From a virus (lineage: Duplodnaviria; Heunggongvirae; Uroviricota; Caudoviricetes), in IMG/VR virus record IMGVR_UViG_2667527633_000005: DNA of 19,664 nt, one strand, 5' to 3'. Position 1 is the first letter of the stretch, and each line of letters begins with the position of its first letter. This document shows positions 1 to 17,547 of the stretch, in pieces. Both the position numbers and the translations under genes were made by a program. Below the pieces are notes generated by a model that was given only the letters and a program-made list of their open reading frames with translations, did no database searches and was not told where the DNA came from.

Positions 1-177
1 CTACCNNNNNNNNNNTACTTTTGCGCCTCCCAGCCGGACCGGCGCTGCGGCGTAATACGCGGCAATTTCACCAATCCAGCCGGTCAGCCTTTCCCGCTGC
101 TCCTGACTGTTCGCGCCCAGAATAAAATCCATCGCTGACTGCGTATCCAGCTCACTCTCAATGGTGGCGGCATACAT
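1..177 (-). CDS. hypothetical protein, 5' portion only (runs off window start; N-run 6..15 inside)
   Basis: Minus-strand frame opening with ATG at 177..175 (MYAATIESELDTQSAMDFILGANSQEQRERLTGWIGEIAAYYAAAPVRLGG...). Absent from the ORF track because there is no stop in the window. No family recognised. Confidence 0.3.
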   Translation of the reverse strand: MYAATIESELDTQSAMDFILGANSQEQRERLTGWIGEIAAYYAAAPVRLGGAKVXXXX

Positions 178-257
178 CGCCTTTATGAAAAGACAGGAAA
201 AAATAAAATTTAAAAACAGTACATTACGAATGCTCAGACCTATCGTTTAAAGGAGTC

Positions 258-279
258 GCAATACACACTGCAATACACG
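258..279. repeat. left copy of 21-bp direct repeat gcaatacacaCtgcaatacac (two tandem GCAATACAC half-sites); candidate att/arm-type site at left island end
   Basis: Matches 10950..10970 (gcaatacacaTtgcaatacac) at 20 of 21 positions; a further GCAATACACA copy lies at 10920..10929 beside the integrase start. Confidence 0.45.
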
Positions 280-312
280 ATTATTTATAAGATGAGCGGC
301 ATCCGTCATAAA

Positions 313-551
313 GCTGGTGGATGCTTTTTCTATGCATATATGCACAGTTTTAGTGGGCGTTAATGTCGATATAGGGATCCCCATATCGAGATTGGATACC
401 TGGCTTTTTTCCGGTTAACCTTTAATCAGGCTGGTGGGCTTTACCTGTTTTGTATGAGTGGTCATCATGACCATGTCATAACAAAAACCCCATATTCGTG
501 GTTTTTCTGTGTCGGGCTATTCTGTCGTTGCTGTGCTGATTTGGCTGGTGG
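313..551 (+). other. cluster of three Chi octamers 5'-GCTGGTGG-3' in one orientation (313..320, 430..437, 544..551)
   Basis: Exact octamers read directly from the sequence within 240 bp of non-coding DNA; palindromes GTCGATATAGGGATCCCCATATCGA (367..392) and GGTCATCATGACC (461..473) lie between them. Confidence 0.75.
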
Positions 552-617
552 GCTGAATCATCATTACGGCGATGCAGCTATGTAGACGTTCCGGCCTCCT
601 CAAATTGAGGATTGTGG

Positions 618-778
618 AAGAATCAATGGGTTAGTCTTACTTTCCCGACATCCCCCAATGGGGGTTTTCGAAACAATCAATAGCTTAGGCTTACTTCCCC
701 GATTTCCTGCATTGCAGGTTTTCGAAATAATCAATGGGTTAGGCCATCGTGCAATTTTGCACTTTGCCAGCCAGCGCA
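618..778 (+). repeat. tandem ~55-bp repeat array (about 2.5 units), each unit with ATCAATGGGTTAG..CTTACTTCCCGA plus a short GC-rich hairpin followed by TTTTCGAAA
   Basis: Units begin near 622, 678 and 731. Hairpins: CCCCCaatGGGGG (about 652..668), CCTGCattGCAGG (706..718), GTGCAAttTTGCAC (759..772). A second repeat family GCCAGCGCAAT..CGCGTTATC occurs near 768..795 and 955..984. Confidence 0.6.
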
Positions 779-992
779 ATGTCGCGTTATCAGTCCTCAG
801 ATGTGAGGGATGTAGCCAGCTTTTCCCCCAGTGGGGGATATCCAGCACCGACGGCTTAACTGTGCGTGCCAGCACAAGGTAGCCTTGAACTACTTACTGC
901 ATCCCATCTTACAGGCCGTGCCTTCCTGCTTAACTTTTTGCAATGCAACAAGTCAGCCAGCGCAATTTTGCGTTATCGGGAATATCAGCAAG

Positions 993-1274
993 TTACCGCC
1001 GCAATCGTTCCGGCTTCTTCCACTGGTAAGTATTTTTCGCGCTCTCCCTCCGTTGTTGAGAACGGCGACGATATGCCAGCAACTCAAGGACTCTTGTTCG
1101 TATGTTGCGCATATCCACGCCGTTAAGCTCAATACCGTCACGGCGCATCACCTCAGCCACTACACGCACATAATTATCTGCGGTCACGCTGTCCGGCTGC
1201 GTGGCCTGTTCGTCATGCTGCTTGCTGATTCCACAAGCACGGCGGATTAATCGCAGTATTTCGGATTCAGTCAT
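993..1274 (-). CDS. hypothetical small protein (93 aa) with arginine-rich C-terminus
   Basis: ORF with ATG at 1274, directly downstream of the terS-like gene on the same strand; C-terminus RRRSQQRRESAK..KKPERLRR suggests nucleic-acid binding. Weak RBS, no family recognised. Confidence 0.4.
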   Translation of the reverse strand: MTESEILRLIRRACGISKQHDEQATQPDSVTADNYVRVVAEVMRRDGIELNGVDMRNIRTRVLELLAYRRRSQQRRESAKNTYQWKKPERLRR

Positions 1275-1356
1275 AGCGTACTACGTTACTTATCTTTATT
1301 CGGCTGCAACTTATCCGGTACGTTTCCGGCAGTTTCCATCAGATAATCGGACAGCA

Positions 1357-1827
1357 TCAGCGGTATGTTTTCGTCAAGTTTTGCGCATGCGTTACAGGCT
1401 CTGATAACTTCTTTTTCAGTCCATCCAGCATAGACGGCTTCATGTCGGGAAACTTCCTTGTCATGGCAAGCGGCAGGCTGTCCATGATTGAAGAAATCTG
1501 ACTCGCCAATTTTGAAAGCACGTATATACAAAACGCTGTATCAATAACGTCGCCGCGTTCGCGCTCGTTTTTAAGCTCCTGCGCCTCTGCCTGTGCTGTC
1601 AGCAATCTGATCCTGACTCGTAGGAGTTCATCATCATCAATCTCGCCTTTGTCGTCTGTAATCTGGTTAATTGCATTGCTAACCCGATTGTCTATTACGC
1701 TGGCAACATCATAAAACGCCTCGCGGCCTTTACGTTCAACGGGAGTCACTCCCCACTTGTCGAACGCTGTCGCACTTACACGGCAGCTTTGCGCCATGTT
1801 TTTTTTGTTCATCAGGTGCGATTTCAT
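1357..1827 (-). CDS. terminase small subunit, phage lambda Nu1-like
   Basis: LLTAQAEAQELKNERERGDVIDTAFCIYVLSKLASQISSIMDSLPLAMTRKFPDM aligns with lambda Nu1 (..RLTRAQADAQELKNARDSAEVVETAFCTFVLSRIAGEIASILDGLPLSVQRRFPEL) as I recall it. Start placed at ATG 1827 (GGGGA RBS 5 nt upstream); the track ORF begins at GTG 1839. Lies about 135 bp downstream of cosN, as in lambda. Confidence 0.85.
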   Translation of the reverse strand: MKSHLMNKKNMAQSCRVSATAFDKWGVTPVERKGREAFYDVASVIDNRVSNAINQITDDKGEIDDDELLRVRIRLLTAQAEAQELKNERERGDVIDTAFCIYVLSKLASQISSIMDSLPLAMTRKFPDMKPSMLDGLKKKLSEPVTHAQNLTKTYR

Positions 1828-1939
1828 CAATATCCCCACTTAAGTAATGTTTCAGGTTGGTGTATTGGCTTTATCTTTTCCTTTTTATTCATAGAGATAG
1901 AGCGAACAACAAAACCACCACCAGCACCCGAAAAAGGCT

Positions 1940-1990
1940 CATAAATAGCGAAAACCCGCGAGGTCGCCGCCCCGTAGCCTACCGGATCGC
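1940..1990 (-). other. lambda-type cohesive-end site (cosN core = reverse complement of 1961..1972, GGGCGGCGACCT, plus conserved flank)
   Basis: Minus strand reads ..ACG GGGCGGCGACCT CGCGGGTTTTCGCTATTTATGAg.., matching the lambda left-end/cosN sequence from memory; positioned immediately upstream of the Nu1-like gene. Confidence 0.8.
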
Positions 1991-2028
1991 CGGAAAGGAC
2001 CCGCCAGCCAGAACGGGCCCTAATTTCA

Positions 2029-2412
2029 TCAACCAATCAACTTATAGCGACCATCCCGTGCATTGCGACGTACACGCTCAATCTTGAGGCATAGCGCCGC
2101 ATCTGGCTTTTTTGGGACAGGTACGCGGCAATATTCAGAAGATCGAGGAATATTGTTTATCCAGTCGATCACTTCACTTAAATACCAGGCCTTACGCCCT
2201 TCCGTAACCTGCACACGCTCCGGGAACTCTCCACTAGCCTCAAGGTTTAGCAATGTGCGACGGCTAAGGGTAGTAAGTTCCATCACCTGATTCATATCAA
2301 CAAGGCGTTCACTTAAACGCATTTTGTCAGCAATAGCCTTTAATTCCTCTACTGCTGGATCCGGATACATCATTTCGGCAATTGGCTTAAGGTCATTGTA
2401 ATGATTCTGCAT
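2029..2412 (-). CDS. AlpA/excisionase-like HTH regulator (127 aa)
   Basis: Central segment MELTTLSRRTLLNLEASGEFPERVQVTEGRKAWYLSEVIDWI resembles the AlpA/Xis-type winged HTH; GGGGGA RBS 4 nt before ATG 2412; sits between the decoration gene and cos. Confidence 0.55.
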   Translation of the reverse strand: MQNHYNDLKPIAEMMYPDPAVEELKAIADKMRLSERLVDMNQVMELTTLSRRTLLNLEASGEFPERVQVTEGRKAWYLSEVIDWINNIPRSSEYCRVPVPKKPDAALCLKIERVRRNARDGRYKLIG

Positions 2413-2423
2413 TGTATCCCCCT

Positions 2424-2765
2424 TTACACACGAGCCAGCGGCTGAACAGAAATACCTGAGCCAACAAACGCGGCAACCTTTGCCGACAGTTCTTTTACAG
2501 ACTCAGGCCAGTTCAGAGCATCAACATTTAAAACACCTGTCTTATAAACCTGTGCCTGTGTTTTTTTCGCTGTGTCGATTTGTACAGCGGAAACATAAAC
2601 CGCTTTACCTACGCTCGAACCATCCCATACCACCAGTGCACCTGTTGCATCTTCCTGCATCAGTGGCGTAAATGCAGGAATTACCCCTTTATTAGCTGAA
2701 AATATCCCCAGCGTAGTCACCAGTGCTTCAGTGCCAGCCATGAGTTCAGTGTAATGAGTAGCCAT
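2424..2765 (-). CDS. head decoration protein, phage lambda gpD-like
   Basis: TPLMQEDATGALVVWDG..VYKTGVLNVDALNWPE..AAFVGSGISVQ parallels lambda gpD (TPLMLDTSSRKLVAWDG..FYKSGTFRYEDVLWPEA..TAFAGTAISIV, from memory); GGGGGAG RBS overlaps the stop of the upstream capsid gene. Confidence 0.8.
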   Translation of the reverse strand: MATHYTELMAGTEALVTTLGIFSANKGVIPAFTPLMQEDATGALVVWDGSSVGKAVYVSAVQIDTAKKTQAQVYKTGVLNVDALNWPESVKELSAKVAAFVGSGISVQPLARV

Positions 2766-2774
2766 TGCTCCCCC

Positions 2775-3815
2775 TTAGCCAATGCGAACGGTAACAAAAC
2801 GATTGATGCGGGCCGGTATTGGCTGTGGTGCTGAATGTGTCTGCACATATTCAATAGCCGGATCACCAGGCACAATATAGTTTTTCGGTGCAAGTTCGGC
2901 TTTAGTCAGCCCCATTCGGATTAGCTCCGGATCCTGAATACCGCCATAGGCGACAATCCCCTGAAGAGCCGTATTGCCAAGCACCATCAAATCAGGATCA
3001 AGGAAATGTTTTTCTGTTCCGTCCTCGTCGGTATAACGCCCGCTGTAAACAACAATCGCAACATCGCCCATATACCCTTTAAAACTCACCGAATCACCAA
3101 GGTCTTTAAGGGCCGTTTCCAGTTCGGAATTAGAACCACGACGGGTATCCAAAGCCTCTTTTATCGCTCTGAATGAACGGTATTTCTTCCATACATTACC
3201 ACCCATAATGATGATATTAGTGACGCCCTCACTAAATTCTGCGTAGCTCTCAATATCATCATTTGGATCAAAAGTTTCTTTATCCTTACCTGACCACTCA
3301 GTACCGCCAGACTGAGTGATGATATTTTGTGGTTTTATATTCCAGTCCAGCTCATAACGTTCAATACCATCGCCCTCAATGATATTTTTCCCCGTTGTGA
3401 TTGCCTGAACAGCAAGCCATTCAATACGTGCACGAATAGCTTTAGCCTGATTTACAATCGCCTGTTTAACTTTAATATTACGTGCCCCAAAAGCATTGTA
3501 TTGCTCAGGTGATACACCAGCAGGGCGCACAGCTAACTTATTTGGATCAATGCTGCTTTTCGGCTTCATATAGCCTGGACGAATTGTTTTTGATTCGTAC
3601 CCTTCGTCACGTGAAACTTTACTACCCACCATAGGAGAACAAAACGCTGCAATTGGGATATTTGGATCGTCGATTGTATCAAGAATAATATCGCGCGATT
3701 CAAACATTACCGAGCGAGTAAAAAACAAACTGGTAAACAACGCATTTAGTTGTTTTTGTACATCTACAGCATTAACCACCTGTACAAGCTGAGTAGGCGA
3801 ATATAAATCAACCAT
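2775..3815 (-). CDS. major capsid protein, phage lambda gpE-like
   Basis: Long collinear match to lambda gpE, e.g. NIITQSGGTEWSGKDKETFDPNDDIESYA..YRSFRAIKEALDTRRGSNSELETALKDLG..YMGDVAIVVYSG..MVLGNT. Start set at ATG 3815 (AAGAGG 6 nt upstream; aligns with the gpE N-terminus); the track ORF extends to 4028, but a stable hairpin at 3990..4020 argues against that extension. Confidence 0.85.
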   Translation of the reverse strand: MVDLYSPTQLVQVVNAVDVQKQLNALFTSLFFTRSVMFESRDIILDTIDDPNIPIAAFCSPMVGSKVSRDEGYESKTIRPGYMKPKSSIDPNKLAVRPAGVSPEQYNAFGARNIKVKQAIVNQAKAIRARIEWLAVQAITTGKNIIEGDGIERYELDWNIKPQNIITQSGGTEWSGKDKETFDPNDDIESYAEFSEGVTNIIIMGGNVWKKYRSFRAIKEALDTRRGSNSELETALKDLGDSVSFKGYMGDVAIVVYSGRYTDEDGTEKHFLDPDLMVLGNTALQGIVAYGGIQDPELIRMGLTKAELAPKNYIVPGDPAIEYVQTHSAPQPIPARINRFVTVRIG

Positions 3816-3989
3816 ACGCATCCTCTTTGCATTCATTAAAAATAATTGTGGATATATGCTACCACCGATATTTGTCATGCGAACACATGCAACCGAGTGC
3901 AATGTTGTATAAAGTTTTGGGGTGACAACTTCAGTGCGGACAATTAGTGTTAATATCTTCACTCCCTTTGGTCGGGATTTATGTAGCAT

Positions 3990-4020
3990 GCCGGAAAATT
4001 TATTTTTTCCGGCCTTTTTT
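3990..4020 (+). terminator. intrinsic-terminator-like hairpin (GCCGGAAAA-tttatt-TTTTCCGGC followed by a T-run), plus-strand orientation
   Basis: Perfect 9-bp stem 3990..3998/4005..4013 with T6 at 4015..4020, in the gap between the SSB-like stop (4032) and the capsid gene; on the minus strand it is a hairpin without a U-tract. Confidence 0.4.
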
Positions 4021-4031
4021 ATTGGCAATAT

Positions 4032-4481
4032 TTAAAACGGGATATCATCTCCCCATTGCTCATTATCTCCCACTGGTGGCTGGCTTCCTTGCTGATCTGC
4101 CTGTTGTTTTGCTCTGTTCAGTTCGTCAGTAGCCTGCCCCTGTTGGCCTTTTTTGCCGCCCGGTCGCGCCGTTCGCGCACTGATTACGCTGTCTGCGATA
4201 ACCTGCCAGCCCCGCCGCGTTTCGCCGTTCTGGCCTGTCCACTGGCTTACCTGCATGTTACCCGCCACGCTCACCAGTTCGCCTTTGTGGTGTTTTGCCA
4301 GTGCGTCGGCCTGTCTGCCAAACGCCAGGACGGATAACCACATCGTCGCCGTTCCGTCATCTGCCTGGCTGCACGGCAGGGGAACCGCCATACTCGCCAT
4401 CGCCATTTGTGTCCCTTTGCTGGTGGTCTTTAACTGCGGGTCAGCCACCAGCCGCCCGTAAGCCGCTATCTGTGCTGTCAT
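4032..4481 (-). CDS. single-stranded DNA-binding protein-like (C-terminal acidic DDIPF tail)
   Basis: Ends ..NEQWGDDIPF, the hallmark SSB C-terminal tail, preceded by a Gly/Gln-rich linker and an N-terminal domain compatible with an OB fold; overlaps the upstream ORF by 4 bp. Confidence 0.65.
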   Translation of the reverse strand: MTAQIAAYGRLVADPQLKTTSKGTQMAMASMAVPLPCSQADDGTATMWLSVLAFGRQADALAKHHKGELVSVAGNMQVSQWTGQNGETRRGWQVIADSVISARTARPGGKKGQQGQATDELNRAKQQADQQGSQPPVGDNEQWGDDIPF

Positions 4482-4792
4482 GCTGTCTGCTCTCCGGTTT
4501 TAACATTGATGGTTGTCACCTGTTCCGCTTCGGCAATCTCCCGTTCTGTCAGCGTGGCAAAGTTTGCCGCTGCTGTGGTCATGAATGCGCTTATCAGGTC
4601 GGGATGTTCCTTCGCGTATCCTGCCCGTGTGTGGTGGTCTATCGCTTTGATTGCCACCTTTAAGGAAAGCTCTGTCATGTCTAACGCTTTATATTTTGCC
4701 TGTGTTCTGTCTCTGCGAATTTTGGTCATTTGTCGCCCCTGATTCATGTTTTCGGCTGGCATGTTTATTAAGTGATTTTTATGTATGCGCAT
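4478..4792 (-). CDS. hypothetical protein (104 aa; start uncertain, several in-frame ATGs)
   Basis: ORF immediately downstream of the iteron origin and translationally coupled to the SSB-like gene; no family recognised. Confidence 0.45.
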   Translation of the reverse strand: MRIHKNHLINMPAENMNQGRQMTKIRRDRTQAKYKALDMTELSLKVAIKAIDHHTRAGYAKEHPDLISAFMTTAAANFATLTEREIAEAEQVTTINVKTGEQTA

Positions 4793-4843
4793 TTATTTTC
4801 ACCCCCCCCTCGTTTAAAAAGTTTTTAGTTGTGCCTCCCCCCC

Positions 4844-5061
4844 TCTACCCATCTACCCGAATGCTCATCATGTCAGTAATGGCGCGGCTTTCAGCGGGTA
4901 GATAGCTTTTTGACTCCTCTACCTGCCGTCTACCCTGCTACCTGAAACTGATAAAATCAGGTAGAAGAGGTAGAGAGCTTTTATTAGCCTTCTACCTAGC
5001 CCTATACCCACTTATCATGTTGAATAATATGCGTTTATTTTGTTCAGGTAGATGGGGTAGA
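4844..5061. repeat. iteron array (TCTACC forward, GGTAGA inverted; at least 10 copies) with adjacent AT-rich DNA: putative replication origin of the island
   Basis: TCTACC at 4844, 4852, 4918, 4929, 4991; GGTAGA at 4897, 4960, 4969, 5047, 5056 (pairs spaced 8-11 bp); AT-rich stretches at 5018..5045 and 5066..5090; immediately 3' of the primase/helicase gene. Confidence 0.6.
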
Positions 5062-5077
5062 TGGCTTTTACAAAAAA

Positions 5078-6832
5078 TTATAAAAACGCGTCGCAATCGT
5101 CTGTTGTAATTGCGTTGGTCTGCGTTACTCCCTTAACTTTTCGCGTAATATATTCATGCCCGTAAACTTTCGCCGCTGGCTTCATGGCCTTGCTGAACTC
5201 AGCCACGTTTAGCGGTTTGCTCCTGCCCGCGTATGCCATAAACGCCAGATAGACGCGGTAAAGGCTGTTCCTGGTCGTGTACTTCACTGAATCACCACCG
5301 CCACCCATCATCAGGCCGCGCGCTTCCTCCAGAAAATTCAGGAACTGGCAAAACTCAATAACCGGATCCGTCTGTTGCTTTATTGCCAGTGCTTCATCAC
5401 CGTCACGCTGTTCCAGTAGTAAAGCCCGTGCCTTCTCAGGGTCGGTAAAGTTCGCCAGCAATCGGCGGATAATAACGGGGATTTCAGCCGCAATCTTTTC
5501 CGGTAGCTCCCTGTCTTTTTCGGCCTCACTGACGATATTGTCGAAACGGAAAATCACGCGACGACGTGCCACACCTCCGGCCCGTTCGGTGAATATCATC
5601 GGGTTGTTGTTGGTCGCCAGCACCACCGCCCTGATTACCGCCGTGAAACGCTTTTCATATTTCGGGTTAATTTCCACGGGGTCGCCGCCTGTGATTTTCT
5701 TGATGCCCGTTCCTTCGCCTGTATATTTCGGCTGGTCAGCCAGGACGATAAGACGACTCCCGACAACCTGCGCACGTCCACCAGCATCATCAAGCGATGT
5801 CATTTCAGCGCTTACCGTGTTCTGTTTCCCTGCCAGAAGGCTGGCTATGTGTGTGAATGTACTTTTACCGCTCCCGCCGTCTCCGGTGGCCTCAATAAAC
5901 ATCTGCCAGTCGTACCGGTTCGCCATAATCATGTACAGCGCGGCACATATACGCATCATCTTGCGCGGGTCTTTTCCGGCTGCGTGCTCAAGCCATTTAT
6001 GAAAGTTTGGCGCGTTATCGCGGATGTTCTCCCCTGGTGCTGGTGGCGTGTACTCAATGCCGTTGTGCGTGGTGATCCAGTTCTCCGGCGTGTGCGGGGA
6101 AAATTCCCCCGTTTTCAGGTCAAGCGCACCATTGGCGAACGGCAGCAAATCGCCAGACGGCTCGCCCATTGGTTCGGCAATAACTTTTAACGCTTCCACG
6201 GCGTTATTGATTACGCGCTTGCTGAAAGTGGCCCTGTGCTCTGAATAGATCGCCACCATTTCGCGGCTAAGTTCCATTGTGCTGACCGGACACCATACCC
6301 CGCCGCGCCATACGTGAACGATTTCACTTTCAGGATGTACGCAAACGCCATCAAAGCGATCGGCAAGCAACTGCGCGCGCTCACTGTCCGCCATCTGCGA
6401 AAGTTGCGCCTTTTGCTTTACCGGAAGCTCAATGACCAGACCATCAGAAAGATTCTGGCGTTCACGGGCCAGATATTCGCGCCAGTTCTGCACCTCCTGG
6501 CCGTGCATACCCTCAGGATAAAAATTTGCATCCTGTACGCCTGCTGCCGCCAGCTTCTGACCAATCGCCTTTATCATTACAGGCGCAAGATATCCGGCCC
6601 TGTATATGCGTGCTGATTTTCGGCCTTCCGGCACAATTTGCAGATTATCCAGTTCGGATAGCTGCTGCTCCCCAAGCCACACAGGAGGCTCATTATCTCC
6701 GGCCATACGCGCATCATGTTCCTGCCATTGTTTCGCGTGTGCCCAGGCATCACTACCCGCAAAAATAATGACTTCTGTTCCTTTGTGTTTTATGCCGCGT
6801 GACTGCTGTTTTACGTTCGGTGCCAGTTTCAT
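5078..6832 (-). CDS. P4-family primase/helicase (Pri-Rep-like replication initiator)
   Basis: 584-aa ORF with Walker A IEATGDGGSGKSTFTHIASLLAGK and a C-terminal region typical of phage/plasmid P4-type primase (D5_N/SF3 helicase-like); the position (small ORFs, pri, then iteron ori) matches satellite replication modules. Confidence 0.9.
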   Translation of the reverse strand: MKLAPNVKQQSRGIKHKGTEVIIFAGSDAWAHAKQWQEHDARMAGDNEPPVWLGEQQLSELDNLQIVPEGRKSARIYRAGYLAPVMIKAIGQKLAAAGVQDANFYPEGMHGQEVQNWREYLARERQNLSDGLVIELPVKQKAQLSQMADSERAQLLADRFDGVCVHPESEIVHVWRGGVWCPVSTMELSREMVAIYSEHRATFSKRVINNAVEALKVIAEPMGEPSGDLLPFANGALDLKTGEFSPHTPENWITTHNGIEYTPPAPGENIRDNAPNFHKWLEHAAGKDPRKMMRICAALYMIMANRYDWQMFIEATGDGGSGKSTFTHIASLLAGKQNTVSAEMTSLDDAGGRAQVVGSRLIVLADQPKYTGEGTGIKKITGGDPVEINPKYEKRFTAVIRAVVLATNNNPMIFTERAGGVARRRVIFRFDNIVSEAEKDRELPEKIAAEIPVIIRRLLANFTDPEKARALLLEQRDGDEALAIKQQTDPVIEFCQFLNFLEEARGLMMGGGGDSVKYTTRNSLYRVYLAFMAYAGRSKPLNVAEFSKAMKPAAKVYGHEYITRKVKGVTQTNAITTDDCDAFL

Positions 6833-7128
6833 TTTTTACCTCTGAATCCGTTAATCATGGTTTTCATTTTCTGGATATTTCCCCACGCTTTTTCCCTGCT
6901 GATGGGCTTACTGCGGGGTGCGGCATATACCAGGGGAAAATCACGCCGGAACTGATAAACAGGCATCACGCAGTCATAGCTATACCCCTCACGGCGGTAA
7001 GTGATGCGCCGTTCTGCCACGCCTTTAATCGTTACCGTGCCGCCGTATTTATCGCGGTAAATATCGCCGTTCATAAATTCAGGTCGAGCGGGGCCGCTGG
7101 CAATAAAGCCAGAATTTTTCATTTCCAT
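6829..7128 (-). CDS. hypothetical protein (99 aa)
   Basis: ORF overlapping the primase start by 4 bp (coupled); no family recognised. Confidence 0.5.
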   Translation of the reverse strand: MEMKNSGFIASGPARPEFMNGDIYRDKYGGTVTIKGVAERRITYRREGYSYDCVMPVYQFRRDFPLVYAAPRSKPISREKAWGNIQKMKTMINGFRGKK

Positions 7129-7145
7129 ATTATTTATTCCTCGAC

Positions 7146-7367
7146 TTAACTCGACTTATTTGATAGCAGGGCACTATTTATTGCGTCATTGAGTTTTTCT
7201 GCTGATTCATCAATAAGTGACAACAGGCCATAAGCAATATTTGCATCTTCATTGTCATTTATGCAATCAAGCCACATATTTAATATTGCTTTTGCTGAAT
7301 TATTTAAAGTTAATGAACTTTCTGCACATGCTAACAATTTAAAAAAGACTTCCCGTTCTGTATTCAT
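7146..7367 (-). CDS. hypothetical protein (73 aa), encoded in a visibly AT-rich segment
   Basis: ORF in the same operon string; local base composition is much more AT-rich than the flanking genes. Confidence 0.4.
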   Translation of the reverse strand: MNTEREVFFKLLACAESSLTLNNSAKAILNMWLDCINDNEDANIAYGLLSLIDESAEKLNDAINSALLSNKSS

Positions 7368-7559
7368 TTAATCCCCCACCAGCTTACTTTCTTCCTCAAT
7401 CAAAAAACTAGCGACACTTCCCGAAAGACGCGCCAGTAGGCTCGCCAGTGCGGATATATCAGCATCTGTAATTTTGTTCGGGTATACCTCAAGAAGGCGG
7501 CAAATAATTTCTGTCTGGTGCGCACGTTCAGCGGCTTCGTGTAATGTAATTTCCTGCAT
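7368..7559 (-). CDS. hypothetical protein (63 aa)
   Basis: ORF abutting its neighbours with no gap (7367/7368; shares nt 7559 with the upstream ORF). Confidence 0.4.
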   Translation of the reverse strand: MQEITLHEAAERAHQTEIICRLLEVYPNKITDADISALASLLARLSGSVASFLIEEESKLVGD

Positions 7560-7744
7560 TAATGCACCTCTTTTAATTCATACACTGCTGAAATAATGAC
7601 TTGTGATAAGCCATATTCTGATGATTCGCTTCTCACCGCAGCAATAGCCGTCTGAACATTAACAGCCTTCACATTCTGAGCGATACCAATTGTGTGGCCT
7701 ATTGGGTTAACAGCTCGGGCAAATACACGGAAGGTTTTAAGCAT
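7559..7744 (-). CDS. hypothetical protein (61 aa), first gene of the leftward operon
   Basis: ATG at 7744 preceded by GGGAG (6-nt spacer); lies immediately downstream of the divergent control region. Confidence 0.45.
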   Translation of the reverse strand: MLKTFRVFARAVNPIGHTIGIAQNVKAVNVQTAIAAVRSESSEYGLSQVIISAVYELKEVH

Positions 7745-8025
7745 GACTCACTCCCTGGCGGATTTTTGCAGCGAATACAGCAACACAACCGGACGGGCAA
7801 CGGCTACGCGCTTCGCGTTCCGTCCAGGCGGTTACGTGGATGATTTGAGATTCTCCGGCACTCAGTGCCAGAAAACGCCACACAAAGGCCGTTTGTGTGT
7901 GTACAAGGTGTGGTATATGATTTACAGCAACCATAACGGCTCCTAGTTTACGTTGTTGGTTAGACGCCCCGTATGTGTTCCCAGCACTGCGGGGCGTTGC
8001 TCTTTGTATTTCAACAATCCTTTCG

Positions 8026-8103
8026 GTGTGTTTCATGTTATGAGCGCATGAAACACACGTCAAGGCTTTTTGTATTTCTTTTTTTGTGTATACTGAAACA
8101 CAC
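8026..8103. promoter_or_regulatory. operator-like sites in the divergent control region: GTGTGTTTCATG-N9-CATGAAACACAC (8026..8058) plus a third TGAAACACAC (8094..8103) overlapping a TATACT -10-like hexamer (8089..8094)
   Basis: Perfect 12-bp inverted repeat read directly; located 20-100 bp upstream of the RHH gene start (8125, AGGAG RBS) and within the 380-bp gap separating the two divergent transcription units. Confidence 0.5.
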
Positions 8104-8124
8104 CGATGATTAGGAGTTTCAGAA

Positions 8125-8430
8125 ATGGCAACGGCTAACAAAAACGCAAAATCACAACTGACAACTGTCAGAGTCCCACTAGATGTTATGCAAGGGATGG
8201 AATCCGTTAAGCTGGACGGTGAAAGCAATGCCGGATTTATCGTAACCGCCATGCGCGGAGAAATAGCCCGCCGCCAAGCAGAAGGCAGCGGAGAAAATCC
8301 CCTTGTGTCGTCACTGGATGCCCTGGCTAAGGTCGAACAAATCGGCATCAAAGCAGCCGAGGAGATCGGGCAACTCGTCACCGTCGCGCGTGAAGAACTC
8401 CAGCGACGCAAGGTCAAAGAGCATGAATAG
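8125..8430 (+). CDS. ribbon-helix-helix (CopG/Arc-like) DNA-binding protein; candidate island repressor
   Basis: N-terminal LTTVRVPLDVMQGMESVKLDGESNAGFIVTAMRGEI has the strand-helix-helix pattern of RHH regulators; strong AGGAG RBS; transcribed opposite to the main island operon. Confidence 0.55.
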   Translation: MATANKNAKSQLTTVRVPLDVMQGMESVKLDGESNAGFIVTAMRGEIARRQAEGSGENPLVSSLDALAKVEQIGIKAAEEIGQLVTVAREELQRRKVKEHE

Positions 8431-8487
8431 CCAATATCAGCGCCATAGTTTGAGGAACGCAGGCGCATTGCTTTACAGGACAGCACC

Positions 8488-8667
8488 ATGAGCGACACAG
8501 AATCAACCAAAACACCATCACCAACTCGTAAGAGACGACGCAAAAATATAGCGCATGAACATGAATCAGAAAGATTCGCACCTTGTTCGTTTGCTCTTGA
8601 GAAATTCCTTAAAGAGCACAGGAAAAAGCTCTCGTTGCAAACCTTGGAACGAACCAAATCTGACTGA
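8488..8667 (+). CDS. hypothetical small basic protein (59 aa)
   Basis: ATG 8488 to TGA 8665..8667 (MSDTESTKTPSPTRKRRRKNIAHEHESERF...), below the ORF-track length cut-off; follows the RHH gene and precedes a strong terminator. Confidence 0.4.
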   Translation: MSDTESTKTPSPTRKRRRKNIAHEHESERFAPCSFALEKFLKEHRKKLSLQTLERTKSD

Positions 8668-8733
8668 TCACATTGCCCACCAGCCGCAAATGTGGCATTG
8701 TTGGTGATGCTTTTGTTTTCCCTTGTTCCCACT

Positions 8734-8765
8734 GGCGACCCTTTTGCGGTCGCCTTTGTTTTGTC
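8734..8765 (+). terminator. rho-independent terminator (GGCGACC-cttttgc-GGTCGCC followed by TTTGTTTTGTC)
   Basis: 7-bp GC-rich stem with T-rich tail, read directly; placed between the convergent plus-strand pair and the Bro-N gene. Confidence 0.6.
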
Positions 8766-9342
8766 ACTGAATGCGGTTACCAAAGTAAAACTCAGGCTGA
8801 TATTCACGTATCAGCGTTTTTTCTTCTTCCTCCAGCTCACGCTTTTTGCGCTTACATGCCTGTAGCTCCCTCCCCTTCTCGCTGGCACTTATTTGATATT
8901 GCTCTTTACGGCGGGAAAAATCCTGTAATGCACCCCACGGGATACCATAAGTCCCCGTTTTTCTGATACCTGGTATCACATTTCTGAATACCCAGTTACT
9001 GAAACGATGAGCAAATGTGCCAGGCGTCGTTGCTTTGCGGCTGCGGGCTATTAGTTTGTAGAAACCTGACTCAGAGATAATTCTCATATTCTGATTTCCT
9101 CCTGGGGTGTAAGTTAAATTTACTCCCTTTTCATCATCATCAAGCATCTGCAACGCCGTACGCGAATTGGTTAGTTCCAGCGCAGCACAAACATCTTTTG
9201 CAACAAACCACGGATCGCCGTTCAGATACACCACACGAACGTTCACACTATCAAAGCGCAGAACGACGAGATCACGAATATCGCAGAATTTTTTCACTGG
9301 ACGAGCGTACCCCTTGCCCGTCACGGCAATATTTTTATTCAT
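8764..9342 (-). CDS. Bro-N domain protein (phage antirepressor-like) with coiled-coil C-terminus
   Basis: N-terminal region (..NGDPWFVAKDVCAALELTNSRTALQMLDDDEK..) is typical of Bro-N/AntA DNA-binding domains; C-terminus is charged and heptad-like (RELQACKRKKRELEEEEKTLIREY). Confidence 0.75.
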   Translation of the reverse strand: MNKNIAVTGKGYARPVKKFCDIRDLVVLRFDSVNVRVVYLNGDPWFVAKDVCAALELTNSRTALQMLDDDEKGVNLTYTPGGNQNMRIISESGFYKLIARSRKATTPGTFAHRFSNWVFRNVIPGIRKTGTYGIPWGALQDFSRRKEQYQISASEKGRELQACKRKKRELEEEEKTLIREYQPEFYFGNRIQ

Positions 9343-9362
9343 CGCGTTTTTACCTTATAGAC

Positions 9363-9385
9363 AAAAAACCCCTCGTGATGAGGGG
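9363..9385 (-). terminator. rho-independent terminator on minus strand (CCCCTC-gtgat-GAGGGG; U-tract from the A6 run 9363..9368)
   Basis: Hairpin 9369..9385 directly downstream of the alpA stop (9399), followed on the minus strand by six U. Confidence 0.5.
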
Positions 9386-9398
9386 CATTATTTACTGG

Positions 9399-9656
9399 TT
9401 ATTGCTGTTTTGTTTTTCCAGGTTTCCATCCAGGATGCCACTCACCACGGATCCATGCCTGAACCTCTGAAAGTCGATACCCTGCAGCACGTTCACCGAT
9501 CTTGATACGTCGCGGGAATTTACCTGCCTGCTCCATTTTCCAGCGTGTTGAGTTTGCCAGCGTGGTAAGTGCTATGCACTCTTTTTCACGAATGAACCGA
9601 TCAATGTCCTTCATTGTGCGCAAATCGTTTTCATCAACAAGAGAATAAATTGCCAT
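9399..9656 (-). CDS. alpA: AlpA-family transcriptional regulator / excisionase-like protein
   Basis: 85 aa; ..CIALTTLANSTRWKMEQAGKFPRRIKIGERAAGYRLSEVQAWI is typical of AlpA (prophage CP4-57 regulator family); start is 2 bp after the integrase stop. Confidence 0.85.
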   Translation of the reverse strand: MAIYSLVDENDLRTMKDIDRFIREKECIALTTLANSTRWKMEQAGKFPRRIKIGERAAGYRLSEVQAWIRGEWHPGWKPGKTKQQ

Positions 9657-9657
9657 A

Positions 9658-10899
9658 TCACACCACCTCTTTATTAAGCTCGATAACGTTGTTGTTAAAT
9701 CCTGCTATCGTATTAAGGTAATTAACCCACATATTAAGCACCTCAAGTTTTTTCTTTATATGCCTGCTTTTATTGTAAACACCAGCAACCCCTTTCACTT
9801 TATGACCTAAAAGAAGTTCGACAATATAAGGATCCGCCCCCATATCATTAAGCGTAGTGGAAAATGTGCGCCTGAAATCATGTATGCACCACAAGCCATT
9901 AGTATCATGACCAAGACGCCTGCATATTCTGTTTGCAGCCCCTGTTATTGTCGCCCTTTGCAAAGCACAACCGACAACATAACCGCGATTTTTTGTTTCT
10001 GCGTAAAGATTAACGATCCATTGTTTTATTCCGTCAGGAACAGGCCTTACTATAGCCTCCTTGTTTTTGCTGTGCTCTTTTGGGACTGTCCATACCCAGT
10101 TTTTTAAATCCCATTCGTCCCAGGTGGATAGCCTCGCCTCCTGCTGTCGGCAACCAAACACCAGGCAGATAACCATTATTCTTCGGTTATATATTGATGA
10201 CAGAGTTAGCAAATTATTACCGTAAGCATAAGACCATACATCAGCGGTTTCATTGATATTAAGAACGCGATCCCTTATACCGGATGAGCGCCCGACATAA
10301 CTTACGTTAATATCTCCAAAGGGATCGCACGCGATGTATTGCCTGACGCGACAAAAACGCAACGCCTGTTTGATATCAAGAAAAATTGCACCAGACATAA
10401 CAGGCGCATTTTTTTTGATCCTGTCAAAGACGGTAAGCCATGTGTGTAATTTGCACTGTTCTATAGCCATATCACCGATATAGGGGAAGATATGCTTTTC
10501 AAATCGTTTTATTAAATATTCATGCTCTTTTCTGGCTGTTGTGGCGTGATTGTCGTACCAGTAAAACAGCGCATCCCTTACGGTCACTGGTTGCATAGTT
10601 TTTTCGGCAGCAAGTTTTATTTGCCTGCGGGGGTCCAGATTTTCAGCCAGCCATTCACGGCACTGATCACGCATGCGCCTGGCCGTTGCAAGAGACATGT
10701 CAGGATAGCGACCAAGTGTAAGCCATACCGGAGGGGATTCCCTGCCACCAAGACGATAGTAAAAAACAAAGCTGATCCCCCCAACCATGCTTACACGCAC
10801 AGACAACCCGCGCCCATCCGCTATTGTTTTTTGTTTGTCCTGCCGTTTTCCGACAAGACTCTTTAACAGTTTGTCACTGAGTTTGTTTTCAATAGCCAT
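9658..10899 (-). CDS. int: tyrosine site-specific integrase, P4-type
   Basis: 413 aa; N-terminal arm-binding-like region (LSDKLLKSLVGKRQDKQKTIADGRGLSVRV..FYYRLGG); C-terminal catalytic motifs HDFRRT..LLGH..GVY; GAGGG RBS 7 nt before ATG 10899. Confidence 0.95.
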   Translation of the reverse strand: MAIENKLSDKLLKSLVGKRQDKQKTIADGRGLSVRVSMVGGISFVFYYRLGGRESPPVWLTLGRYPDMSLATARRMRDQCREWLAENLDPRRQIKLAAEKTMQPVTVRDALFYWYDNHATTARKEHEYLIKRFEKHIFPYIGDMAIEQCKLHTWLTVFDRIKKNAPVMSGAIFLDIKQALRFCRVRQYIACDPFGDINVSYVGRSSGIRDRVLNINETADVWSYAYGNNLLTLSSIYNRRIMVICLVFGCRQQEARLSTWDEWDLKNWVWTVPKEHSKNKEAIVRPVPDGIKQWIVNLYAETKNRGYVVGCALQRATITGAANRICRRLGHDTNGLWCIHDFRRTFSTTLNDMGADPYIVELLLGHKVKGVAGVYNKSRHIKKKLEVLNMWVNYLNTIAGFNNNVIELNKEVV

Positions 10900-10919
10900 T
10901 AAAAGCCCTCAAGAGATTT

Positions 10920-10970
10920 GCAATACACACCCATCCCGATCGCCAATTTGCAATACACATTGCAATACAC
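10920..10970. repeat. right copies of the GCAATACACA repeat (10920..10929; 21-mer gcaatacacaTtgcaatacac at 10950..10970); candidate attR/arm-type or AlpA/Int operator sites
   Basis: Direct repeat of 258..278 (20/21 identical); located in the integrase promoter region. Confidence 0.45.
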
Positions 10971-11174
10971 AAAACCGCGAAAAACTGGAAGGGTGATGAA
11001 CGGTCATCAAAAGCATGGAAAACGACATTCCAGACGCAGCAAGGGTTTCAGTGGAGTTGGCGAACGATGCGGGCAACTACGGTGAGATGATAGACATAAA
11101 TCGCCTTCACAATGGCGCTCTGCAGCTGCGTGTTCTGCAGCGTGTCGAGCATCTTCATCTGCTNNNNNNNNNNT

Positions 11175-11624: not shown

Positions 11625-12149
11625 TTATTGTTTAACCCATAATAATTCATTGACATTGAATCCCAGCTTTTGAGCGGTTCGCACATAGTCTGCTTTTACT
11701 TTATCTGGAATAGTTGGGGTCCTTGCCAGAATCCATAGGTATTCTCTGTTCGGACCACTGACAAGAGCATACTTATACTCATCATCCAGTTTGATTACAT
11801 TATAGCCACCATAGAAGGGGCCAAAAAACGAAACCTTCAACGCTGCAGTTTTAGTATCTCCAGTAAAGTATGCTTTACCTTCGCTCTCGCTCCATTTATT
11901 TTTCGTTGGATCGTATCCACGGTTAAGTACACGAATCCCTCCGTCGTTCCGTTTTCCATAAGTAGCGCTGACCTGTTCCAGACCACGTTCGAACCGGTTC
12001 TCGAGGCGAGCTATTTCATACCATTTTCCGAGATAGCGGTTGGCGTCAAAATTTGTAATCGGCTGCACACCTTTAGGTGGTGTCGGGGCCTTACATGCTA
12101 TAAGAGTGAAAGAGAGTGCAATGCCAGTCAACACAGGCCATAACTTCAT
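11625..12149 (-). CDS. blc: outer-membrane lipoprotein lipocalin Blc
   Basis: Lipoprotein signal ..LTGIALSFTLIACKAP then NFDANRYLGKWYEIARLENRFERGLEQVSATY..GKAYFTGDTKTAALKVSFFGPFYGGYNVIKLD..YLWILARTPT, clearly Blc-like but only moderately similar to E. coli K-12 Blc; start set at ATG 12149 (AGGA RBS) rather than the track's 12209. Confidence 0.85.
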   Translation of the reverse strand: MKLWPVLTGIALSFTLIACKAPTPPKGVQPITNFDANRYLGKWYEIARLENRFERGLEQVSATYGKRNDGGIRVLNRGYDPTKNKWSESEGKAYFTGDTKTAALKVSFFGPFYGGYNVIKLDDEYKYALVSGPNREYLWILARTPTIPDKVKADYVRTAQKLGFNVNELLWVKQ

Positions 12150-12341
12150 AATAAATCCTGTACTTTTGATAGTTGAGGGTAAGTATGAAAGATAGATGAT
12201 TACGACCAATCACTTAAAGAACTTTTATACTATATTAGGAATAGTCCATAACAGAAAAATTGTCAGTGATGACGCCAGAAAGGCAATTTATTCCGTGCAC
12301 TACACAGTTTATCTGTTAATGAATTAGTCAAGGGGGAGGAT

Positions 12342-13301
12342 ATGATAAAAAAACCTGTGATTGGAATCAGCGGTTGTTTGGCCGGTTCTGCTGTTCGTTT
12401 TGATGGTGGTCACAAAAGAGCTGACTTTTTAATGGACAAATTAGTGGAATGGGTAACATTCAGACCAGTATGTCCGGAAATGGCTATAGGGCTGCCAGTT
12501 CCGCGTCCTGCTCTACGTCTTGTGCGCTCGACGCAAGGAAATATACGGATGTGTTTCAGCCACGACCAGAATGAGGATGTGACAGAGAGAATGACAGAGT
12601 TTAGTCGTTCTTATATGGACAAATTAAAGGATGTATCGGGGTTTGTGGTTTGTGCTAAATCTCCCAGCTGTGGCATGGAGCGCGTGCGTGTCTATGATGA
12701 AAATGGTAATCGAGGTCGTAAAGATGGAGTGGGACTATTTACGAGCACTTTGATGGAAAAGTTTTCTTGGCTACCGGTTGAAGAGGATGGGCGATTACAT
12801 GATCCAGTGCTTCGTGAGAATTTTGTTGAAAGAGTTTTTGCTTTGCATGAGCTCAATCACCTTTACAAGGAGAAATTATCAAGAAGAGAGTTATTAGCTT
12901 TTCATAGTCGTTATAAGCTTCAGTTGTTGGCGCATAGTCAGGCAGGCTATAAAGATATGGGACCATTTGTGGCTGCAATACACGAGTGGGCGGACCTTGA
13001 ATCATTCTTTGAGGTGTATCGTGATAAGCTGATGGCGATTCTCATAAAACCTGCATCACGTAAAAATCACACGAATGTGCTGATGCATATACAGGGGTAT
13101 TTTAGTAACTACTTAAGTACACGCCAGCGTAAAGAGTTGAGCGAGGTTATACTTAACTATCGTTCTGGCACATTGCCTCTTCTTGCGCCGTTGACTCTGC
13201 TGAAGCATTATCTGGGTGAGTATCCTAATGATTACTTGCTTACACAGAATTACTTCGATCCCTATCCGGAAGAACTGGCTTTAAGACTGATGGTGAATTA
13301 A
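12342..13301 (+). CDS. DUF523 (TudS-like) / DUF1722 fusion protein
   Basis: N-terminal domain with three spaced cysteines (GISGCLAG, PVCPE, SPSCG) as in DUF523 [4Fe-4S] proteins, C-terminal half YbgA/DUF1722-like; strong RBS AAGGGGGAGG; AT-rich gene. Confidence 0.6.
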   Translation: MIKKPVIGISGCLAGSAVRFDGGHKRADFLMDKLVEWVTFRPVCPEMAIGLPVPRPALRLVRSTQGNIRMCFSHDQNEDVTERMTEFSRSYMDKLKDVSGFVVCAKSPSCGMERVRVYDENGNRGRKDGVGLFTSTLMEKFSWLPVEEDGRLHDPVLRENFVERVFALHELNHLYKEKLSRRELLAFHSRYKLQLLAHSQAGYKDMGPFVAAIHEWADLESFFEVYRDKLMAILIKPASRKNHTNVLMHIQGYFSNYLSTRQRKELSEVILNYRSGTLPLLAPLTLLKHYLGEYPNDYLLTQNYFDPYPEELALRLMVN

Positions 13302-13780
13302 CTGTATGCGATATCATCTGAAAGTGATGAGTTCCTGCATGCAGGATATTTACAATCGTAAAAACTACACTATGATACCCATAGTGTCAGTTTGTATAAA
13401 AATCCTGTTCACGCTGAAGAAAATATTGAGATGCAATTTAATGTTGGTAAATATACCAGCCCCAAAATATTTTATTCAATCTGTTTTTATATAAAGATAT
13501 TTCAAGCGAATATTAAGAGCATATAATATTATTATTGCACGCAGCTATTATAATATAACAGATTAGTTTAATGATTTTTTGCGAGTTAAACACATGCTTT
13601 TATAGTTGTGATGCAATGAGATTTTCCTTATTGTTGAACTGGCGAATATTGATTACCCACCTATACTTACCTGGTGTAACCCCAATGATATCAGGTGGAT
13701 AATATGCCATACATATGTTCTATGGTGATGCCTCTAATTAGTTGAGTCTGATGTATAATACGGGCTTTTGAGGTTATCTC

Positions 13781-14053
13781 ATGGCCAGAGTTAATATTCA
13801 TTGTCCCCGTTGTCAGTCAGCTCAGGTTTACCGCCATGGTCAGAACCCTAAAGGCCGTGACAGATTTCGCTGCCGTGACTGCCACCGTGTGTTTCAGCTC
13901 ACTTATACTTATCAAGCACGTAAGCCGGGTATGAAAGAGCGGATAACTGAAATGGCCTTTAATGGTGCCGGGGTTCGCGATACCGCCAGGACACTGAAAA
14001 TTGGTATTAACACCGTCATCCGGACTTTAAAAAACTCGCGCCAAAGCGAATAA
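13781..14053 (+). CDS. insA: IS1 transposase InsA
   Basis: MARVNIHCPRCQSAQVYRHGQNPKGRDRFRCRDCHRVFQLTYTY.. has the same zinc-finger/HTH pattern as IS1 InsA ([45 protein letters not shown].., from memory). Confidence 0.85.
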   Translation: MARVNIHCPRCQSAQVYRHGQNPKGRDRFRCRDCHRVFQLTYTYQARKPGMKERITEMAFNGAGVRDTARTLKIGINTVIRTLKNSRQSE

Positions 14054-14439
14054 CTTCTTCGCCTGTTGCCCATGCTGATGTGGCGCTTATCTGCGAGCTT
14101 GATGAGCAATGGAGCTACGTTGGCAGTAAAGCCCGGCAACACTGACTCTGGTACGCGTACAACACCAAAACAGGCGGTGTACTGGCCTACACTTTTGGTC
14201 CCCGAACCGATCAAACGTGCCGGGAGCTACTGGCACTGCTTACACCCTTCAATATCGGCATGCTGACCAGCGATGACTGGGGCAGCTATGGCCGGGAGGT
14301 GCCGAAGAATAAGCATCTGACCGGCAAAATATTCACCCAACGCATTGAGCGTAATAATCTGACGCTACGCACCCGTATTAAGCGGTTGGCTCGTAAAACA
14401 ATCTGCTTCTCACGCTCAGTTGAGATCCACGAAAATTAA
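14029..14439 (+). CDS. insB: IS1 InsB segment (-1 frame; expressed as InsAB' by programmed frameshift at TTAAAAAAC 14027..14035)
   Basis: -1 frame encodes ..[73 protein letters not shown].., matching the IS1 InsB catalytic region; ends at TAA 14437..14439, earlier than canonical InsB. Confidence 0.7.
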
Positions 14440-14606
14440 TTCTTGAAGAGCGAATGGTGATGGCGGAAAGGTTATTAAGCTACAATTTATATTCTGTTGG
14501 GAAAGTTGCTGAGATATGCGGTTATGAAAATACGTCATATTTTGTAAGTGTTTTCAGAAGATATTTTGGTGTTCCTCCCCACAAATATTCATCAAGATTT
14601 TTTTAG
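14440..14606 (+). pseudogene. AraC-family regulator, C-terminal HTH remnant (5' part deleted at the IS junction)
   Basis: Frame encodes ..MAERLLSYNLYSVGKVAEICGYENTSYFVSVFRRYFGVPPHKYSSRFF*, the second HTH of AraC/XylS proteins; no N-terminal part upstream of the IS; left boundary approximate. Confidence 0.55.
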
Positions 14607-14684
14607 AAAAACACATGATGTAACGTGATGCGTTTTAATGATTTTGTAATTTTCGTATTTGATAATTTTATGATGCTTTCAGCT

Positions 14685-14716
14685 ACGCCAGAATAATCGC
14701 TGGCGTTTTTCTTTTT
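14685..14716 (+). terminator. rho-independent terminator (ACGCCAG-aataatcg-CTGGCGT + T-run)
   Basis: 7-bp stem 14685..14691/14700..14706 followed by TTTTTCTTTTT; downstream of the AraC remnant. Confidence 0.6.
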
Positions 14717-14812
14717 GAATAGATGTTCAGGCCTTACGCTAATGTAACTTCTATACCTTTCCCTCTTCGTTCCGAACCGTGTACACCATCCGTTATTTGC
14801 GGAGGTGAGGCT

Positions 14813-15028
14813 ATGAAATCCATGGACAAGTTAACAACGGGCATTGCCTACGGCACCTCCGCAGGCAGTGCTGGCTACTGGTTTTTACAGTGGCTTGATC
14901 AGGTCAGTCCATCACAGTGGGCTGCTATTGGTGTGCTGGGAAGTCTGGTTCTGGGCTTTCTGACTTACCTGACGAATCTGTACTTCAAAATAAGAGAAGA
15001 CAAGCGTAAAGCTGCGCGGGGAGAGTAA
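14813..15028 (+). CDS. class II holin, phage 21 S-type (dual-start MKSM motif)
   Basis: [71 protein letters not shown] is near-identical to S21/EssD-type holins from memory; GGAGGTGA RBS; the track ORF starts upstream at 14723. Confidence 0.9.
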
Positions 15029-15032
15029 TTCA

Positions 15033-15615: not shown

Positions 15616-15720
15616 AAACAATCCTCTCTATTGTATTTAACTATTCCTTGCCTGATTCAACAGGCCGGGACAGATAAACATATCCAGGGTTCAGAAACCG
15701 ATAAATCCTGATAAATATCC

Positions 15721-17509: not shown

Positions 17510-17547
17510 CGCAGTCAAAACGATATTATCAGCAAGGGATCAACGTC

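Follow-up and report, generated by a model that had tools for sequence, protein, structure and literature searches.

A lambda-type cosN beside a family-specific cosB and an N15-like small terminase gene in an Escherichia coli phage satellite

Phage-inducible chromosomal islands (PICIs) in Escherichia coli include some that encode a small terminase (TerS). EcCIIHE3034 is one of two TerS-encoding PICIs marked in a 2018 study, which recorded the presence of TerS and low-frequency transfer and did not analyse the cos/TerS mechanism (Fillol-Salom et al. 2018, PMC6092414). Proteins of the Rpp type (139–154 amino acids, aa) are without a tail for binding the large terminase (TerL) and function only in a hetero-complex with helper TerS (PMC6739421, PMC9026076). 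Small terminase is a core PICI component in SatelliteFinder (PMC10085698), and helper-embedded satellites such as 11capE have been described (Tommasini, Mageeney and Williams, bioRxiv 10.1101/2022.07.18.500453). Here, a satellite is characterized in a 19,664-nucleotide stretch of viral DNA (the window; IMG/VR record IMGVR_UViG_2667527633_000005), in which a lambda-like cos site is followed by a terS gene of the Nu1 family. The presence of the same module in EcCIIHE3034, SatelliteFinder and RefSeq annotation together place this feature in the described kind, and it is a further member of the TerS-encoding E. coli PICIs. With a probability of roughly 0.7, the comparisons below point to a packaging module in which lambda-like cosQ and cosN are kept and the satellite's own cosB and TerS work with a helper TerL.

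The ends of the lambda genome (NC_001416) were the reference for cos, and identities are ungapped. Positions in base pairs (bp) are counted from the first base of the cohesive end. On the minus strand, 1972..1939 reproduces the lambda left end over 34 bases with 0 mismatches and as a single occurrence in the window, and 0 of 200 shuffles had any match at ≤3 mismatches. This bears out an earlier note, made from the sequence alone, which claimed an exact lambda cohesive end with adjacent left-end sequence. Alignment with lambda cos gave a longer match than was claimed because the cosQ side is also covered (Table 1): the cosQ-cosN spacer agrees at 19 of 23 positions, and bp −30 to +34 overall at 60 of 64. 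Window positions 1927..2004 match lambdoid cos regions at ~91% identity (blastn, 50,697 phage records), and a 65–78-bp cos core is found in ~4,190 of 5,426 complete E. coli genomes.

Identity to lambda is 9/30 upstream of cosQ and 49/111 over the cosB interval (bp 35–145), in agreement with the decay before terS that the earlier note described. None of the lambda R sequences of cosB (R3-I1-R2-R1) is present in the window cosB, and family-specific conserved blocks stand in their place. RefSeq annotates relatives with the same TerS start as the one claimed at 1827, which lies at bp 146, against bp 191 in lambda. The proposed lambda-like placement therefore holds for the order cosQ-cosN-cosB-terS and not for this distance.

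Conservation was measured in a family set of 84 members (80 IMG/VR loci and 4 complete genomes). A profile scan of genome contigs with the TerS alignment gave no match, and the family was taken from IMG/VR. Pairwise diversity was computed on 60 unique sequences, with third codon positions as a neutral proxy. Baselines are 0.18–0.30 at third codon positions and 0.22–0.37 in unconstrained spacers. Diversity is 0.024 in cosQ (adjacent spacer, 0.32), 0.054 in the left part of cosN (bp 6–12 are variable, 0.25) and 0.046 in bp 13–36. Conserved family-wide are cosQ, the left half of cosN, bp 13–36, the GGTGGTGGTTTTGTT block (block 1) and a second block (block 2), and the terS ATG is at bp 146 in 82 of the 84 members.

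Block 1 is located where the R3 elements of lambda and N15 lie (PMC9026076). It agrees with N15 R3, GAGGTTGTTGTT, at 9 of 12 positions (N15 R3 motif match, p ~0.09). Its core persists as GGTGGTGGTGTTGTT in Enterobacter and Citrobacter relatives with 60% TerS identity, in which the surrounding non-coding DNA has diverged. Position and sequence make block 1 a likely R3-equivalent TerS-binding site. Citrobacter relatives retain block 2 in the form CAATACACCCACTTGA. Centre to centre, blocks 1 and 2 are 59 bp apart, which by hand count is also the spacing of R3 and R2 in lambda, and block 2 may represent a second TerS site in inverted orientation.

Conservation of the cosB blocks goes together with that of the DNA-binding domain of TerS, both in the 84 members and in the 60%-identity Citrobacter and Enterobacter relatives. 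Diversity at first, second and third codon positions is 0.021, 0.033 and 0.18 in the DNA-binding domain and 0.109, 0.12 and 0.302 in the C-terminal third of TerS. The DNA-binding domain is thus nearly invariant and the C-terminal third more variable; the former is under purifying selection.

With its frame restored, terS of the window encodes 180 aa ending at 1286, and relatives are annotated "terminase small subunit" in RefSeq. The 180-aa form is found in 79 of the 80 IMG/VR loci. As encoded in relatives, its residues 1–176 match PHROG 57 ("terminase small subunit"; E 5e-51). Intact TerS is 48% identical to N15 gp1 (E 3e-57) and ~38% identical to lambda Nu1, and aligns over all three Nu1 domains. 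Residues 5–50 align with the DNA-binding domains of N15 and lambda and include an N15-like region, NKKNMAQSCRVSATAFDKWGVTPVERKGRE. The central oligomerization region is the part most like lambda Nu1 (AQAEAQELKN, TAFC..VLS..A..I.SI.D.LPL). The tail LDENIPLMLSDYL aligns with lambda LDELIPGLLSEYI, with a 12-residue extension beyond. By homology, the intact gene is a full three-domain Nu1-family small terminase of N15 type.

The earlier note missed that the terS frame of the window copy is broken by a 1-bp deletion, which leaves an A5 run where relatives have A6 (Table 1). Frame 1 encodes 156 aa with a stop at 1357..1359, and the homologous C-terminal tail goes on in the −1 frame to 1286. The 156-aa protein matches Pfam Phage_Nu1 (PF07471) over residues 69–148 with 77.8 bits against a cut-off of 30. 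The deletion is in 0 of 56 complete genomes with this allele segment, all 56 of which have A6, and the truncated protein recurs in one accession block of NCBI draft assemblies (GCA_0014130xx-0014138xx). Absence from the complete genomes and presence in one draft block point to a homopolymer error or else to a defect specific to one lineage. The window copy is probably mis-assembled or defective.

EcCIIHE3034 has the same gene order as the window element: integrase, alpA, primase, single-strand DNA-binding protein (SSB), capsid, decoration, helix-turn-helix, cos, terS and a 93-aa open reading frame (ORF). Its TerS is 81% identical to that of the window island, with a nearly identical DNA-binding domain, and it has the same cosQ and cosN and the same GGTGGTGGTTTTGTT and ACACCAACCTGAA blocks. 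It differs in being integrated at cspD-clpS rather than in a prophage portal gene and in having an intact terS. 11capE was described without terS and is presumed to use the helper cos machinery, whereas the window element has its own terS and a non-helper cosB. In staphylococcal pathogenicity islands (SaPIs), too, a small terminase encoded by the satellite works with the large terminase of the helper and steers packaging towards the satellite's DNA. SaPIs differ in using headful/pac packaging and an unrelated TerS family, with no cos, shared nicking site or cohesive ends.

Sequence identity, homology, synteny and conservation are the basis for the favored packaging module, in which DNA binding, TerL recruitment and packaging would proceed as follows. 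The retained cosQ, cosN and cosN right flank would be the parts needed by a lambda-like large terminase and for termination. The TerS-binding R sequences of lambda would have been replaced by the satellite-specific blocks at bp 48–68 and 109–122. After helper induction, satellite TerS would bind its own cosB through an N-terminal winged-helix domain and recruit the gpA-like helper TerL through its C-terminal tail. Helper TerL would then nick cosN and package satellite concatemers into helper-built heads, with termination at cosQ/cosN. Monomers of ~11 kb would be packaged as concatemers of about four units, filling a lambda-sized head, in line with the proposal for EcCICFT073 (PMC6092414). An additional role of satellite TerS in interference with the helper is plausible.

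Several observations weigh against this module. The tail of the window terS is out of frame past residue 138 and the predicted TerL-binding tail is lost, so that this copy as written could not recruit TerL alone. No integration host factor site was recognized by eye in cosB, where no formal scan was run. Inverted or direct repeats were absent from cosB at a 6-nucleotide seed, and the relation between blocks 1 and 2 is not significant (shuffle p ~0.8). Given these null results and the p of ~0.09 for the N15 R3 motif, a lambda-like R3/R2 pair is not claimed, only two conserved blocks at lambda-like spacing. An AlphaFold2 model of TerS (27-sequence alignment) has low confidence (pLDDT 56), and its best Foldseek match, a viral packaging-motor entry, is not significant (E 0.03). 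The literature consulted on TerS-encoding E. coli islands reports only existence and low-frequency transfer, for two islands (PMC6092414). In WP8-S17-ESBL-12 (locus L199, 1943 and 17058), the island has cohesive end GGGCGTCAGGCG and the embedding prophage GGGCGGCGACCT; either the matching helper need not be the prophage in which the island sits, or TerL tolerates the difference.

A PDB sequence search with the window protein returned only noise, and the hit of a four-sequence profile to lambda TerS (6hn7_B) was not significant (E 0.89). The secondary-structure order of the low-confidence model fits the expected winged-helix type. Foldseek matches included MerR/excisionase-type winged helices, in line with the expected fold and not usable as proof. 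The earlier note had read the locus as a layout for hijacking a helper large terminase. Comparison backs its shared nicking site, diverged binding region and island Nu1-type TerS. This support is partial, given the window terS without a predicted TerL-binding tail, the N15-like character of TerS, the lambda end being only the majority variant and the island/prophage mismatch in WP8-S17-ESBL-12.

The lambda 12-mer GGGCGGCGACCT is the cohesive end of 64 of the 84 members. Seven variants occur in the set, among them GGGCGTCAGGCG (9 members), GGGCGGAAGGCG (4) and GGGCGGCAGACG (3), and a Citrobacter relative has AGGCGGCAGCGT. The cosB is unchanged across at least seven cohesive-end variants (loci L021–L100, L199). 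GGGCGTCAGGCG is also found in lambda-like phages with a lambda-type cosB, Nu1 and a 641-aa TerL. In E. coli APEC O2-211, island and host prophage share the lambda cohesive end; the prophage has a Nu1 identical to that of lambda, and a TerL gene is present. A rule that the island end always equals that of the embedding prophage holds in APEC O2-211, fails in WP8-S17-ESBL-12 and was rejected. An exact lambda cosN is typical, not obligatory; what stays constant is cosQ, cosN in its left half and right flank, cosB and the spacing.

A second, inverted cos that resembles cos2 of EcCICFT073 is found downstream of terS in about half of the related islands. Examples, all on the minus strand, are L007 (11883), L009 (14309), L095 (6734) and L004 (10964), and ~40 further loci have one. 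The second cos often has a phage-like cosB or another cohesive end, e.g. GGGCGGGAGCAT. A single cos is present in the window island and in its nearest relatives, and neither a second cos nor a second Nu1 gene was found in the window. ORF 18527..19066 was considered as a helper Nu1 and rejected because it encodes a GYF_2-domain protein.

The cos1-RppA pair of EcCICFT073 (PMC6739421; PMC9026076) is syntenic with the window module and has lambda-like cosQ and cosN, a non-lambda cosB and a specificity gene directly downstream of cos. The two share a logic in which the parts needed by TerL are kept and the parts that select DNA are changed. The Rpp-type cosB core ACCACCACC (bp 55–63; ~13613..13621 in L009) is the exact reverse complement of the window-island core GGTGGTGGT (bp 51–59; 1914..1922), and the two lie at almost the same distance from cosN. 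Island TerS could act like Rpp, forming mixed oligomers with helper Nu1 that are redirected to the island cosB and poison helper packaging, with TerL brought partly or wholly by helper TerS. The terS gene stands exactly at the rppA position of EcCICFT073, Rpp hetero-dimerizes with TerS (PMC6739421), and the tail-less window allele is within two residues of the Rpp size range. The central domain, most similar to lambda Nu1 in its oligomerization region, is lambda-like enough to keep hetero-oligomers in consideration. This mode is nonetheless unlikely. RppA has no detectable similarity to island TerS (no BLASTP alignment at E ≤ 100), and PDB searches did not retrieve RppC. The TerL-binding-type tail is full length in 79 of 80 loci and in all 56 complete genomes, which would be surprising for a protein that left TerL recruitment to the helper.

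N15 gp1 is the closest characterized homologue and shares a short wing and the AFDKWGV recognition-helix region with island TerS. N15 R3 resembles block 1; N15 cosB has a single R3 (PMC9026076), and the second conserved island block has no counterpart in N15. N15 also differs in being a complete phage with terL beside terS, in its ATG at bp 89 (146 in the island) and in its cohesive end, GGGCGGCGTCCG. The cos-terS segment might have been captured recently from an N15-like or lambdoid phage and still match some helpers, which would make the island a good substrate with no self-specific packaging. N15 gp1 is indeed the closest phage relative, the two best matches to the N15 R3 motif (9/12) are the two conserved cosB blocks, and satellites capture helper late genes (bioRxiv 10.1101/2022.07.18.500453). 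The distribution of the TerS lineage makes shared specificity improbable. No TerS at ≥60% identity was found in the 50,697 phage records, where none exceeded 48% and the best was that of N15 (47.6%). All inspected contexts are satellites and none is a phage, including the 60%-identity Enterobacter and Citrobacter tier, which has the same capsid/decoration/AlpA/cos/terS module, in some cases inside prophage capsid genes. Prophages that host islands carry lambda-type Nu1 and lambda R sequences, and the N15 cohesive end is not among the seven variants. At least 80% of the 801-bp cos and terS segment is present in 761 of the 5,426 complete E. coli genomes. The "private" TerS of the earlier note stands insofar as no phage has a match at ≥60%; it is qualified by the N15-like character of TerS and probably of the R3 element, and by the frameshift in the window.

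That cos and the frameshifted terS are functionless relics of a degraded prophage, as the broken frame and a draft scaffold with prophage debris on other contigs might suggest, is very improbable given that the element has a complete set of satellite genes and is 98.9% identical to intact copies, the clear constraint on non-coding blocks and coding sequence across the family, and the absence of the frameshift from the complete genomes checked.

At least three contigs make up the window, a draft scaffold with runs of 10 N each at 6..15 and 11164..11173, so that gene neighborhood across these runs is not real linkage. The satellite contig (Table 1) matches a segment of APEC O2-211, the closest complete genome, with 98.9% identity across 11,150 bp. 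There, the element splits the portal gene of a lambda-like prophage; it has the orientation of the late genes and lies downstream of the prophage cos, Nu1, terminase large subunit and W. Portal-gene fragments at the ends of the window contig match this arrangement, and the junctions in the window are hidden by the contig breaks. Close relatives lie at the chromosomal sites cspD-clpS and roxA-phoQ, and others are embedded in a prophage capsid E gene.

Like PICIs and helper-embedded satellites, the element is unidirectional, falls in the ~10–15-kb range and combines an integrase and AlpA with a replication module of the primase type and a late zone that is short. No tail, lysis or large-terminase genes were found in the gene and Pfam survey of the element. 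The terS gene is followed by the 93-aa ORF, which is also found downstream of rppA in EcCICFT073, and then by the island end, with no adjacent terL, unlike in phages. By gene content and by its portal-gene setting in APEC O2-211, the element is a PICI-type phage satellite of the helper-embedded kind. The capsid/decoration/AlpA/cos/terS order is constant from E. coli to Citrobacter and Enterobacter.

Table 1. Coordinates of cos elements, genes and other features in the window
Feature	Position	Strand	Remarks
cosN cohesive-end 12-mer GGGCGGCGACCT	1961..1972	−	12/12 vs lambda
cosN right flank (bp 13–34) CGCGGGTTTTCGCTATTTATGA	1939..1960	−	22/22 vs lambda
cosQ heptamer GGGTCCT	1996..2002	−	7/7 vs lambda; bp −30..−24, lambda spacing
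cosB block 1 (bp 48–68) GCTGGTGGTGGTTTTGTTGTT	1905..1925	−	diversity 0.064; flanking bp 37–47, 0.23
cosB block 2 (bp 109–122) TACACCAACCTGAA	1851..1864	−	diversity 0.029, nearly invariant
terS (Nu1 family, N15-like), frameshifted	1286..1827	−	ATG at 1827
A5 run, 1-bp deletion breaking terS	1412..1416	−	A6 in relatives; alignment column 635
Entire satellite contig	17..11163	−	~11 kb
Portal-gene fragments at contig ends	17..186 and 11069..11163
Integrase	9658..10899	−	Pfam
AlpA	9399..9656	−	Pfam
Bro-N protein	8764..9342	−	Pfam
DUF4222 protein		−	between Bro-N and D5-type primase in gene list
D5-type primase	5078..6832	−	Pfam
SSB	4032..4481	−	Pfam
Lambda E-like major capsid gene	2775..3815	−	Pfam Phage_cap_E; gene calls in relatives
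D-like decoration gene	2424..2765	−	Pfam HDPD; gene calls in relatives
AlpA-type helix-turn-helix gene	2029..2412	−	127 aa; Pfam Phage_AlpA, PHROG 2790; directly upstream of cos
Conserved 93-aa ORF	993..1274	−	downstream of terS; PHROG 1561, E 1e-55
IS1 insA	13781..14053		other contigs
P21-type holin	14723..15028		other contigs
Lysozyme	15721..16254		other contigs
Rz	16236..16718		other contigs
GYF_2-domain protein	18527..19066		other contigs

The program-made capsid ORF (2775..4028, minus strand) has 417 aa and a TTG start. In relatives, the annotated protein has 346 aa and begins at 3815, which makes translation of the 71 codons before it improbable. The 127-aa AlpA-type regulator upstream of cos gives way to an unrelated protein of 137 aa in Rpp-type islands and in some of the TerS type. 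The motif TTGCAATACAC occurs three times just upstream of the integrase gene (~10919..10971), and an additional 21-nucleotide copy lies at 258..278 near the opposite island end. These repeats may be integrase arm-type sites; a "doubled motif" of attP regions was noted by Tommasini et al. Cargo in relatives (L199 9985..10860 and 18435..19196; L192 6559..7916) includes TIR-domain, abortive-infection family, FRG and DUF3892 proteins. It is placed beside the integration module and just downstream of terS, positions that look like defence-gene hot spots. The remaining contigs (11625..19664) contain a lipocalin gene, a YbgA-family gene, a lysis cassette and prophage debris. Rfam gave no match on the whole window, and a promoter and terminator scan of 1200..2500 found no promoter-like site and no terminator at cos.

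A broader proposal is that the N15-like TerS/cosB pair is a satellite-only packaging-specificity class that works with lambda-type TerL whatever the cohesive end. We regard it as tentative and less likely than not; it draws on the retention of cosB and a rigid 146-bp frame across at least seven cohesive ends and on the one island/prophage mismatch. If it is true, where a lambda-like TerL nicks would depend mainly on the geometry of TerS and cosB and on the left half of cosN rather than on the complete cosN sequence. As a corollary, Rpp proteins could have descended from such satellite TerS proteins by loss of the tail, a step that the truncated window allele mimics, or could be their functional analogues.

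The window itself is an ordinary member of a described family. The analysis adds the anatomy of cos, the affinity with N15, the satellite-only distribution of the TerS lineage, a decoupling between cosB and the cohesive end and, for this copy, the frameshift. Members of the satellite family are common in E. coli and carry accessory and defence genes. Rpp is the only packaging-redirection route worked out for cos-type Gram-negative islands, and a satellite's own TerS with its own cosB would be an alternative to it. The division of work between TerS-cosB anchoring and cosN recognition was raised explicitly by Murialdo and Feiss (PMC9026076), and the comparative map of constrained bases, fixed spacing and variable cohesive ends provides targets on this question.

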